Translations under genes and position numbers: made by a program
IMG/VR virus record: IMGVR_UViG_2529293142_000024
Origin: a virus
Lineage: Duplodnaviria; Heunggongvirae; Uroviricota; Caudoviricetes
DNA: 6,159 nucleotides
Direction: 5' to 3' (one strand)
Shown here: piece after piece, positions 1,802-6,159 of the stretch
How positions within the stretch are numbered: the first letter of the stretch is position 1
Layout of the letters: each line of letters begins with the position of its first letter
The notes under the pieces: model-generated
Database searches by the model: none
The model's input: the letters and a program-made list of their open reading frames with translations, nothing else
Told to the model about the DNA's origin: nothing

Positions 1802-2945
1802 ATGCTTCGCCACTTAACAGGACTCAGATTTATAGCTGCATTAATGGTTTATTTATGCCATTTAAATACAGACTATTTTGGTGTTTTTGTAAAAGAAATG
1901 TTTTCTCAGGGATTTATTGGCGTTTCCTTTTTCTTTATTTTATCTGGCTTCATTCTTTCATATTCATATGAAGACAAGCTAAAAAATGAAGTAACAAGTA
2001 AAAGACAGTTTATTCTTTTAAGATTGGCAAGAATTGTTCCAATGCATCTATTATTAGCCATGCCATTTATTTTACTAACCATTCACTTAAAGAACTTTGA
2101 TTTTTCAAAAACCTTAACAAATATTTTATTAATGCAAAGTTGGATACCAAAGGAGGATTACTACTTCTCATTAAATGGTGTATCATGGTCTTTGTCTGAT
2201 GAGCTGTTTTTTTATTTAATGTTTATTCCGTTGATTTATACATCAATTACAAAGAAAGTAATCACTGCAATATCAATTATAACTCTACTATTAACTATAT
2301 ATTTTTTAAAAATATACAAACAGAAGAACTTAATCACTGGTTATATTATATATTCCCAGTAAGCCGCTTGGTAGAATTTATTTGCGGCATGATTATTTAC
2401 GCTTGCTGGAAAAACAGCCGACAGCCGACAGCCGACAGCCGACAGCCGACAGCCGACAGCCGACAGCCGACAGCCGACAGCCGACAGCCGACAGCCGACA
2501 GCCGACAGCCGACAGCCGACAGCCGACAGCCGACAGCCGACAGCCGACAGCCGACAGCCGACAGCCTTTTGTTTTTAATTTCACTATTACCTCTGCTAAT
2601 AGCTATATATTATAGCAACAACATAAATAATAGTCTACGTTATTCGTTATATTATTTACTCCCCATGGTAATATTCTTTACTTCATGCATCTATCTAAGA
2701 AATGGAGTCATTCATACTATCCTCAGTTCAAAAACCCTAGAGCTATTAGGGAAATCATCATTTATTTTTATTTAATTCATCAACCCATTATATTATTTTG
2801 CTTTAAAATCTTTGGACATAACCCCGGACCACTCTATTTAATAGCGCTCCTTGTTATAATAACCATAGTCTCAATCATACTTTATAAATTAGTTGAGGAG
2901 CCTTTAGAGCTGATGCTAAGAAAACGAATTTTAGCAGTAAAATAA
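1802..2945 (+). pseudogene. acyltransferase family 3 (O-antigen/LPS O-acetyltransferase-like) integral membrane protein gene; frame-disrupted as sequenced, carrying an in-frame (CAGCCGA)21 tract
   Basis: Three consecutive ORF fragments in frames 2, 1 and 0 (1772-2362, 2368-2775, 2685-2945) together read as one AT3 protein of about 380 aa. Family hallmarks: N-terminus MLRHLTGLRFIAALMVYLCHL, motif VSWSLSDELFFY, R-x-VEFICGMIIYA, C-terminal GKSSFIF/YLIHQPII and LVEEP. ATG at 1802 has a good Shine-Dalgarno; the ORF-track start at 1772 is TTG. Frame breaks map to the T6A5 run (2302-2312) and the T5 run (2764-2768); each is repaired by +1 nt. About 28% GC against about 45-50% in flanking genes. Confidence 0.7.
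2415..2566 (+). repeat. simple-sequence repeat: 21 perfect copies of heptanucleotide CAGCCGA plus a partial copy (CAGCC), inside the acyltransferase coding region
   Basis: Counted directly: units start at 2415 + 7k for k = 0..20, then cagcc at 2562-2566. In the gene frame the tract encodes (SRQPTAD)x7. The tract is 71% GC. Confidence 0.97.
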
Positions 2946-2947
2946 AT

Positions 2948-2971
2948 AAAACCGCGCTATTGCGCGGTTTT
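2948..2971. terminator. bidirectional intrinsic terminator between the acyltransferase (+) and the phage tail operon (-)
   Basis: AAAACCGCGC (2948-2957), loop TATT, GCGCGGTTTT (2962-2971): a 10-bp stem with 6 GC pairs, flanked by A/T runs so a U-tract follows on either strand. It lies 3 bp after the acyltransferase stop (2943-2945) and overlaps the last codons and stop (2959-2957) of the minus-strand small ORF. Confidence 0.55.
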
Positions 2972-3136
2972 ATCTTCAGGCTTGATGAATTTTTTACCGT
3001 CATATGACCAGCCAATACCAACATCTCCAACACATTTAACTATATCCGCTTTTTCTGTCTTAAACTCTGACTTACCATCCCATACAACAAGATTTGTAAC
3101 GACACCATTTTGTACGACTGCATAAATATCGCTCAT
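2957..3136 (-). CDS. small phage protein (59 aa), function unknown; possibly a short or truncated tail-fibre accessory/assembly-like protein
   Basis: ATG at 3136-3134 overlaps the tail-fibre stop (TAATG). GGGAG Shine-Dalgarno at 3149-3145 with an 8-nt spacer. Product MSDIYAVVQNGVVTNLVVWDGKSEF...KTAQ. The ORF track extends it to a GTG at 3151. No family recognised with confidence. Confidence 0.45.
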   Translation of the reverse strand: MSDIYAVVQNGVVTNLVVWDGKSEFKTEKADIVKCVGDVGIGWSYDGKKFIKPEDKTAQ

Positions 3137-3729
3137 TACTGATACTCCCACACAAGAATATATCCCTGATTTCCATTATTTCCTGTCGCTGGGCCTGATG
3201 ACGCCTTATTGTATTTACCTGTCCCGCCAATACCGTATGTCCCAAGCATAGTAGTGGTTATACTTTCAACGCCAATCGCCTGATCATCACCAAGTCCAAG
3301 TGCCCCACATAAATTTGATCGTGAAACTGAATGGAACAGAATCCCTTGCCCTGTAGGAATTGGTGCTTCTGTTGCACTTCCCCCTGAAAATGGAGGTACC
3401 TGCTGAACTTGAGTTGATCCCCTTCCTCCCGGGCATACAAGCAAATCACCAAAGCTTGTATTCCCGCCGTCACCTCCAGAGCCTCCTGGTCCTGTTCCTG
3501 CTACACCACCGCTTCCAATAGTTACTTGCACGGATTCAGGTATAGACTGATAAAAAAATGCTTTAGCATATGCCCCGTTGGAACCGGCAGCACTTACACC
3601 ACAGTTATTTGAGGCTGTTGCTGATAAATTGCCACTGGCACCACCACCGCCAACGGCTTCCACTATAATTTTCGTTACACCAGGTGATTTGTGATAAGTC
3701 CCAGATGATCCAAATACCTGAACCCCCAA
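3136..3729 (-). CDS. tail fibre protein, glycine-rich C-terminal segment (probably the distal part of one fibre gene interrupted at 3782-3788)
   Basis: ORF with a TTG start and no credible Shine-Dalgarno. Gly-rich stretches (VEAVGGGGASG, GSGGVAGTGPGGSGGDGGNT) typical of phage fibre distal domains. Its frame is open upstream to the TAA at 3789-3787, directly after the A7 run of the upstream ORF. Confidence 0.6.
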   Translation of the reverse strand: MGVQVFGSSGTYHKSPGVTKIIVEAVGGGGASGNLSATASNNCGVSAAGSNGAYAKAFFYQSIPESVQVTIGSGGVAGTGPGGSGGDGGNTSFGDLLVCPGGRGSTQVQQVPPFSGGSATEAPIPTGQGILFHSVSRSNLCGALGLGDDQAIGVESITTTMLGTYGIGGTGKYNKASSGPATGNNGNQGYILVWEYQ

Positions 3730-3755
3730 AAGCCTTCCTGTTCCATCACCAAGTG

Positions 3756-4283
3756 TTAAATATTGTAGAGTTTCCGATACGTTTTTTTACTTAAAATTTC
3801 CCTACCATTTTGAGTCAGCACTGTCATATCCATTGTTCCAGCACCTGTAAAAAATGCCAGCCCATCCGGTATTCCTGTTAAGCTCGACAATGATGTCAGA
3901 TTATCATTTTTATCCTGTTTATCATTCAGAATGTCTGTCATTCCCAGGTTTTCGAGAGCCGTTTGCACAGTGCCATCCGATTTGATATCGCCAAACGGAT
4001 TCTTGCGGCTCAGGTATTCAACAGCAAACCCCGATCCCAGCAATTCAACAAAACCGGGCAGATCACCATTATCAAGCACATCCCGTTGCGTTTTGTCACT
4101 TACAAACTGGGCCAGAGCTGCAGCAATAAAGCTGGCCTGCCGAATAACCTTATTGACTTGCGCACTGGATGCTTTCCCTGCTGTAAATCCGGATAAAAGC
4201 GCAGGCAACGCTTCCCATTCCTCCTGCGACATAACATTGGCATTCCGATCAGTTGCAAACGCTTTAAAGTCATTTTTCGCCAT
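3756..4283 (-). CDS. tail fibre protein, N-terminal (baseplate-proximal) segment
   Basis: Product [33 protein letters not shown]... resembles the conserved N-termini of P2/Mu-type side tail fibres. ATG at 4283-4281 overlaps the stop of the upstream gene (TGATG), with GGGAG at 4298-4294. The ORF track's alternative ATG at 4301 has no usable spacer. Ends at TAA 3758-3756, 10 codons after an A7 run. Confidence 0.65.
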
Positions 4284-4963
4284 CAGAGTAATACTCCCCA
4301 TGCCCCTACATCAAAACCACTGATGAATTCGTTATCCATATCAAAACCAAAAAATTTTGAACCTTCCGATGGAGTTTCCACCGAAGGTGTTTCAATGCCA
4401 CCCGCCCAAACCCCGGCGGCTTTTACTGTGAGATATCCCTGTTTAATTGCAGCAATTAACTCACGCGATACATCTGAAATATCAGTATCAGGAAAGAGCC
4501 AGACCGATATCGTCATGTCCTGGTTATCGACTATCTGCATTCGCAGTCCGGATCCTGCTGTCGCCGCGTCAAGAATTGCTGGAAGCGAATCATTCCGTCC
4601 GTCCCAGTTATTAATCGCAATCTTCGCTTTAAGGATGACACGATAAGTTTCATCGCTGAGGTACATGTATCCGGAATCAGGATCGTATGGCCCCTGCCAT
4701 ACACCCTGATCATATCCAAGCCCGTCGGTATCCCAGCTGAAATAGACACCTGAGATAGGCTGGCTGACAACACGGCTACGTCCGATCCACAATCCAAGAA
4801 TGTCAAGTTGCACACCAACCGCAGAGTCAATATCAAATGCAGTAATCAGCCCTCTGGTGGCAGCCGCAACATCAATAAGCGGCCGGGTCATCAGATCAAC
4901 ATGTGCAAGAAATTTAGGTTTGGTGGCGTGGTAGTTCGTGATCAGTTCGGTGTATTTGCTCAT
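4283..4963 (-). CDS. phage baseplate/tail protein, P2 gpI / Mu gp48-like by position (226 aa)
   Basis: ATG at 4963-4961 overlaps the stop of the J-like gene (ATGA). Sits between the baseplate J-like gene and the tail fibre, as gpI does in P2-type, Mu-type and R-pyocin-type tail modules. Assignment is mainly positional; no motif recognised with certainty. Confidence 0.5.
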
Positions 4964-6159
4964 GACTCCACCGTTATAACGATATTTTCCGGTGTACAGG
5001 ACGCAGATTCGTTGTATCTGATATCAATGTTTGATGACGACAAAGCCCCCGGGGATTTCCCAATCGTCAGTTCCTGAATATCGTAATAGCGTGCATTCCC
5101 GCCACTCACCACGCCAAGATTCGCCGGTGAGTAAATGCGACTTAAAAGGACCGAATCACCAATCATCAGACTATTGATATAGTCGGAAATAGCCTGCTGG
5201 ATCTGCTGCCCTATCTGTGAGGTATAACCCGTAAAAACTTTTAATTTAATCCGGGCATAAACAGGTACATCACTGGAACGCGAGAATTTGATTACATGGG
5301 GATTGCCGTATTTATCCGGAACCGTAACGGATGTTGTACCGTGAGTGGCTGTCCCCTGGCCTTTATTCCCTCTGATAGCCTGAGCAATATCCGTCACATC
5401 ACCGCCATCCACAATTACAGCAACAGAGTGTGGCGGTAACCCGTTACCGTCCTCCGAACCAGTATCGTTTTCATAGAGTTTGTGGCGGGTTACACCGGTA
5501 ACATTAGAAACAGCACCATCCAGTGCTTCAAATGGGGTTATTGATGGCAACGCAACACTTTGCGACTGGCGGATACGTAACTCAGCATCAGTTTCTGCCG
5601 GAGAGCCAACAGTAGCCGCAGCAGGATTAGTTACCGAAACCCAGCCACGGGTTGGCGTATTAATTTCAGTGATAGTTCCAGCCAGCGCCGCCACTGCACC
5701 ACTGACGGAACATGTTGCGGTCGCCATCACTGTACCATCCACGCCGACCACCACTGAAGCAGGCAAACGCCATATCACATTATTACTGTCTTTCACGCTG
5801 CCATTAATGATGGTTGTTCCGGCAGTTCCTGTAAGAAGCAAATCAACCGTAGAGTTCGTCGCGCCTTTACGTGAAATACCATTTATTTTCACGTTACTGG
5901 TCAGTGCAGCCCCATAGCCGGTTGCCGGTGAAAAACAGTTGTAGACAGTTATCGCCATATTATTAGCATCATGAATCGCCAGCGCCATCAGAGCCACCAT
6001 CTGGCCGTCTTTGCTGTCCGGTTCGAGGTAGGCATCACTGCCATAAATCTGCTGAAAATAGCTAATCAGGGTGCTGAGTATCGTCTGATAATCAGGCGCA
6101 CTGATCCCCTCCGCGGTTACCTTTGCAGATAAACCGAGAGAATCAAGGTTCAGAGCCAT
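4960..6159 (-). CDS. phage baseplate J-like protein (baseplate wedge); start codon lies at the window edge, so the gene may extend beyond it
   Basis: 399-codon ORF. Contains the AETDAELRIRQ motif and overall resemblance to Baseplate_J-family proteins of contractile-tail phages. Gene order J, I-like, fibre. Confidence 0.6.
   Translation of the reverse strand: MALNLDSLGLSAKVTAEGISAPDYQTILSTLISYFQQIYGSDAYLEPDSKDGQMVALMALAIHDANNMAITVYNCFSPATGYGAALTSNVKINGISRKGATNSTVDLLLTGTAGTTIINGSVKDSNNVIWRLPASVVVGVDGTVMATATCSVSGAVAALAGTITEINTPTRGWVSVTNPAAATVGSPAETDAELRIRQSQSVALPSITPFEALDGAVSNVTGVTRHKLYENDTGSEDGNGLPPHSVAVIVDGGDVTDIAQAIRGNKGQGTATHGTTSVTVPDKYGNPHVIKFSRSSDVPVYARIKLKVFTGYTSQIGQQIQQAISDYINSLMIGDSVLLSRIYSPANLGVVSGGNARYYDIQELTIGKSPGALSSSNIDIRYNESASCTPENIVITVES

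Follow-up and report, generated by a model that had tools for sequence, protein, structure and literature searches.

In several described systems, an A-rich run joins two reading frames. Examples are −1 frameshifting of the dnaX type and slippage at A9 or T9 tracts (Thermus dnaX, Shigella mxiE and IS elements), and the tail-fibre locus described here is like them in this respect. Programmed transcriptional slippage sites use approximately nine A or T residues (PMC1088944). For E. coli RNA polymerase, no reporter rescue was detectable below eight A's, and insertions amounted to 0.39% at A7 (PMC6260861). Homopolymers are also hot spots of replication slippage (PMC1088944, discussion). Genes can in addition be split falsely, by homopolymer under-calls in 454 sequencing.

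We analyzed a stretch of 6,159 nucleotides from a virus of the Caudoviricetes (IMG/VR record IMGVR_UViG_2529293142_000024), hereafter called the window, in which a prophage tail-fibre gene appears divided into two ORFs at a run of seven A's (A7).

Results

The fibre gene is divided exactly at the A7 run

On the minus strand, the window reads GAA ATT TTA AGT AAA AAA ACG and continues as TAT CGG AAA CTC TAC AAT ATT to a TAA stop, and the A run at positions 3788–3782 consists of exactly seven A's when read directly from the sequence. The N-terminal fibre fragment (175 aa; 4283..3756, minus strand), which comprises the baseplate-proximal domain and the conserved linker, ends with the out-of-frame tail TYRKLYNI, its stop codon lying at 3758–3756. 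The C-terminal frame, which encodes the glycine-rich distal domain (3136..3786, minus strand), opens right after the run, at a TAA (3789–3787) made of a T and the first two A's of the run. An earlier note on this DNA had claimed that the fibre gene was split exactly at an A7 run, and both the exact run and the two frames were confirmed. Addition of one A at the run fused both ORFs into a tail fibre of 382 aa, in agreement with the approximately 380 aa that the note had put forward, and the translation across the junction was then exactly that encoded by the orthologues with eight A's (A8).

Translation of the N-terminal part likely begins at the ATG at 4283, which overlaps the stop codon of the upstream gene (ATGA) and gives 175 aa (382 aa when fused), and not at the upstream ATG at 4301 from which 181 aa had been counted. 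The 181-aa form had no exact look-up match; gene callers start at ATG 4283. In the C-terminal frame, the first start codon is a TTG at 3729, which gives an ORF of 197 aa (3729..3136, minus strand). The statement that this TTG lacks a Shine-Dalgarno sequence proved inaccurate: the Shine-Dalgarno-like motif AGGAAGG occupies positions −10 to −4. In intact genes, the same motif merely forms codons for T-G-R-L.

The A7 run by itself is not unusual in the window, where four such runs were observed and 3.6 are expected. What is above chance is that the frame changes exactly on the run and that the orthologues differ there by exactly one A.

The two ORFs belong to a modular tail-fibre gene

The fused protein matched the tail-fibre families phrog_11303 (2e-71) and phrog_1396 (1e-42), both on its N-terminus, and phrog_863 matched residues 1–381 in one stretch across the junction. 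The distal half matched the Pfam glycine-rich domain PF21722. Moreover, the first 115 residues were 97% identical to the fibres of Escherichia phages vB_EcoM-683R1, -611R5 and -606R2, and the linker and distal half also occurred behind an StfP-type N-terminus in e14/Mu-like prophages. Judging from these matches, the two segments form one modular fibre gene and not two genes, and the proposed union of an N-terminal fibre domain with a glycine-rich distal domain is borne out by the continuous ORF of 31 A8 orthologues.

The assignment as a tail fibre is supported by these family matches together with the position of the gene after the Baseplate_J and DUF2612 genes. The Baseplate J/gp47 gene (4960..6159, minus strand) shows that the fibre gene belongs to the baseplate operon of a contractile tail, and the DUF2612 or baseplate wedge gene (4283..4963, minus strand) lies immediately upstream of the fibre, its stop being the one that overlaps the fibre start. 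On the other side, a 59-aa ORF (phrog_14370; 2957..3136, minus strand) overlaps the fibre stop codon (TAATG). In every annotated locus that was examined, an ORF of 59 or 68 aa came after the glycine-rich fibre module; from its position, the 59-aa ORF might be a fibre accessory protein or chaperone. Rfam and tRNA scans of the window gave no matches.

The closest relatives of this fibre are the modular fibres of E. coli prophages (StfP of e14-like prophages, and the "gp53-like" or side tail fibre of SfV/Mu-like prophages), of which the StfP-type fibres have the linker and distal part in common with it. Unlike in this locus, the glycine-rich distal domain was never fused to this N-terminus in the isolated phages of the collection. 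Here it travels as a cassette with the 59-aa ORF, and most loci also have an acyltransferase gene in the cassette.

Orthologues carry eight A's and a continuous ORF

All 12 complete E. coli genomes with the junction carried A8 and an uninterrupted ORF of 366–413 aa. Metagenomes and IMG/VR were scanned with a pattern that allowed any run length, and of the 20 further contigs obtained (4 from metagenomes and 16 from IMG/VR), 19 carried A8. The lone A7 among these contigs was identical to the draft genome of E. coli DEC12A, which is described below. Intact proteins were found on several hundred contigs by exact-sequence look-ups. The junction was not found at any run length in a GTDB scan with one genome per species, which includes just one E. 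coli genome and is for this reason uninformative.

The 30 nt flanking the run were identical or nearly so between the window and the 31 A8 orthologues, and at the run the window differed from them by a one-base change in homopolymer length and by nothing else. The position orthologous to the A7 run was A8 in all reliable sequences, and, apart from the assembly ERR1609507, A7 or A6 was confined to old drafts and fragmented assemblies. The A6 version came from a fragmented assembly, in which it stood on a contig of 1.2 kb, and looks like noise. As judged from these alignments, the normal state of the gene is an in-frame A8 encoding Lys-Lys-Asn, and the out-of-frame layout is not conserved. The comparison with orthologous fibres had been asked for beforehand in the earlier note; its outcome, A8 and a single ORF in 31 orthologues, points to the result that the note had itself listed against its more interesting reading of the split.

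In 8 of the 12 complete-genome records (L001, L002 and L004–L009), the RefSeq annotation has no single gene for the intact A8 fibre ORF. A pseudogene of approximately 100 aa ("partial, missing C-terminus"; stfP or hypothetical) is annotated instead, followed by nothing or by a 268-aa "glycine-rich domain-containing protein" with an internal start. The comparison exposes an annotation gap, in that the intact A8 fibre ORF is missing as a single gene from these records.

The source assembly contains further one-base deficits

The 175-aa product was found on one NCBI contig, AFDY02000034.1 of GCA_000225185.3, to which the window maps. The AFDY assembly is that of E. coli STEC strain 031 (also H.I.8), serotype O174:H21. 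Its sole data were 454 Titanium FLX paired-end reads, and the assembler was Celera (PMC3491183). The window was not identical to AFDY02000034.1. Two more single bases were missing from the window, one at approximately 2769 (A6 to A5 in the minus-strand reading; given on the plus strand) and one at approximately 2313 (AA to A; plus strand). Both deficits lie next to or within A/T runs, and together they leave the acyltransferase gene in three ORFs. They are absent from AFDY02000034.1 and from all orthologues and are probably assembly errors. Because the window lacks these two bases relative to AFDY02000034.1, it represents an assembly version in which one-base indel errors lie no more than 1.5 kb from the A7 run. 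Both versions of the contig, including the later AFDY02, carry the A7. In the IMG/VR contig L027, the acyltransferase ORF ends at ...SSFIFI, as in the frameshifted reading of the window; this protein end suggests that L027 has the same A6-to-A5 deficit.

Drafts of the DEC collection report A7 where a finished genome has A8

A7 was present at the same site in five DEC drafts (DEC12A–D and DEC14B), which have the StfP-type N-terminus and in which the truncated products end with SKKTYRKL. When the DEC12A draft was compared with E. coli O111:H2 strain 12A, for which there is a complete genome, no substitution was found over 20,473 bp, and the only two differences were one-base deficits of the draft, at the A8 run of the fibre gene and at a T7 run. 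The sister DEC drafts differed from the complete genome of strain 12A by 1–4 substitutions, indicating that 12A and DEC12A represent a single strain or two nearly identical ones. In the DEC12C draft (AIHC01, L042), a base was missing in yet another A7 run.

These data are direct evidence that drafts from those years under-called the fibre run as A7, and the pattern of deficits in DEC12A relative to 12A suggests that the DEC deficits are flow-sequencing artefacts. The DEC13B draft has the gene intact, which indicates that the under-call is not universal. By a rough estimate, the under-call affected five of the six DEC drafts examined, and A7 occurred outside such drafts once among the independent sequences counted.

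An A7 run in ERR1609507 and other disruptions of the fibre gene

The single case was the Logan assembly ERR1609507, an independent assembly with a fibre of the same type but a different allele, which also has A7. Over 3.3 kb, it differed from the window by 37 substitutions and by no other indels; there were no other frameshifts in 7.4 kb, and the neighbouring genes were all intact. From ERR1609507, a natural A7 allele may exist, and among the complete genomes none was close enough to gauge the indel error rate of this assembly. The distances between the two A7 alleles fit common descent and independent origin alike.

The same fibre gene was disrupted in the metagenome contig PPYE01759750.1 (L023) by an insertion after ...FGSSGT, at 9600–9633. 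We read this insertion as the left end of an IS3 element, in which case it would be a genuine natural disruption. In strain P0065, the gene was truncated just upstream of the run, with a product ending in ...TKNGR. P0065/P0068 had been considered as another A7 split, and this was rejected: the product ends before the run, at ...NGR, which is a different truncation.

A heptanucleotide repeat and the end of the prophage

The prophage Acyl_transf_3 gene (PF01757; approximately 1802–2945, plus strand) contains a perfect heptanucleotide microsatellite, (ACAGCCG) x 21.9, at 2414–2566 (plus strand). In 17 orthologous loci, a 26-nt imperfect version with 3.7 units was found at this place. Expansion was seen in the locus L025 (12 additional units, in frame, 367 aa), in L039 (8 additional units of ACAGTCG, or 56 nt, out of frame and truncated at 235 aa), and in the window and L012 (18 additional units, in frame, 381 aa with (PTADSRQ)n). 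The repeat unit is not a multiple of three, and one of these three independent expansions breaks the frame. In its sequence, the repeat looks like a simple-sequence contingency locus. The acyltransferase may be an O-antigen-modifying enzyme, a role that we assume from its family, and a simple-sequence contingency locus in such an acyltransferase would be unusual for E. coli.

Positions 1–1340 of the window include a chromosomal flank with a yebW-like DUF1482 ORF and the phosphatase gene pphA (277–936). The flank meets the prophage end at approximately 1297–1341, and there is no integrase at this end. In relatives, the sole annotation at this place is an S24/LexA-type repressor fragment, and related loci carry different scars, including pinE and fibre-assembly fragments.

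Discussion

We consider it probable, at roughly 0.85, that the A7 of the window is a one-base homopolymer under-call in the 454-only draft of STEC 031/H.I.8 and that the true gene is one ORF of 382 aa. The 454 reads of strain 031 would have under-called an A8 run as A7; the two ORFs would then be an assembly artefact, with nothing functional happening at the A run. The basis for this reading was observed directly: A8 in the orthologues, the sequencing platform of the source, the other indels of the window, and a DEC under-call contradicted by a finished genome. Several signs of an artefact are found here, namely flow-only reads, a one-base homopolymer change, more indels of the same kind, and a miscall at the same site that is put right in a finished genome. 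The feature is most likely not real as biology. Among the causes listed in the earlier note, sequencing or assembly error is therefore the one that the evidence favours, and slippage giving two products found no support.

A genuine deletion, in which strain 031 lost one A from A8 by replication slippage and the fibre became a true pseudogene, is possible and much less likely than an error; we regard it as improbable, even though it has several points in its favour. The A7 persisted in both contig versions of strain 031, ERR1609507 carries A7 in another allele, homopolymers are prone to just this kind of slippage, and the loss of the fibre gene appears to be tolerated, because other natural disruptions exist (PPYE01759750.1 and P0065). 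Against these points, the genome of strain 031 was sequenced by 454 only, the window has further indel errors no more than 1.5 kb from the run, A7 is reported at this exact site in drafts where the finished genome of the drafted strain carries A8, and among the independent sequences counted A7 was met only once outside such drafts. If the deletion were genuine, the product would be a 175-aa stub without the receptor-binding domain, joined at best by a free 197-aa distal fragment translated from the TTG, and a real A7 would be a frameshift of the ordinary kind, inactivating the fibre gene of a prophage. A related reading, that A8 is a real mutational switch, seems to us very doubtful; strain 031 and the strain behind ERR1609507 would then truly be A7 variants in which the receptor-binding half of the fibre is "off", and slippage of RNA polymerase or of the ribosome on the A7 run would give trace full-length protein.

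Even less credence can be given to a deliberate use of the run, be it that A7 is decoded into two products by −1 ribosomal frameshifting or by insertion of an A by RNA polymerase, or that it acts as a phase-variation switch. From the sequence, a −1 shift on AAA AAA A would restore exactly the wild-type SKKNVS, and an AGGGA lies approximately 10 nt upstream of the run at a spacing that may resemble that of dnaX. However, the zero-frame codons AGT AAA AAA ACG give the heptamer T AAA AAA, the base before the run being T, and this is not the phase of X XXY YYZ. A downstream stimulatory structure was likewise not predicted in the 92 nt folded, in which the minimum free energy was −12.1 kcal/mol as compared with a mean of −16.3 for shuffled sequences (z = +1.61) and the first 32 nt downstream of the run were unpaired. 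The two-frame layout, moreover, is not conserved, since 31 orthologues are in frame. This also speaks against transcriptional slippage, for which a run of seven is below the approximately nine A or T residues used; a verified A7 template would give trace full-length protein at best. As for a switch, tract lengths of 6, 7 and 8 are all present in public data, but the variation follows draft or fragmented assemblies and not strains, and no tract polymorphism was found in the 12 complete genomes.

The probable under-call in strain 031 carries a caution for other genes. Splits at A/T runs of at least seven in 454-era drafts, such as AFDY and the DEC collection, need to be checked against a finished genome, and without such a check a split gene is no sound basis for naming a pseudogene or a recoding site.

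Compared with dnaX-type frameshifting and A9/T9 slippage, the locus shares the feature that a longer product that makes sense would result from a −1 event. It differs in that the split is not conserved, the stimulatory structure is absent, and the run is out of phase and not long enough. In comparison with known false splits caused by 454 homopolymer under-calls, nothing is materially different here; common to both are 454-only data, a sequence one base short at an A/T run of at least seven, deficits nearby, and contradiction by a finished genome.
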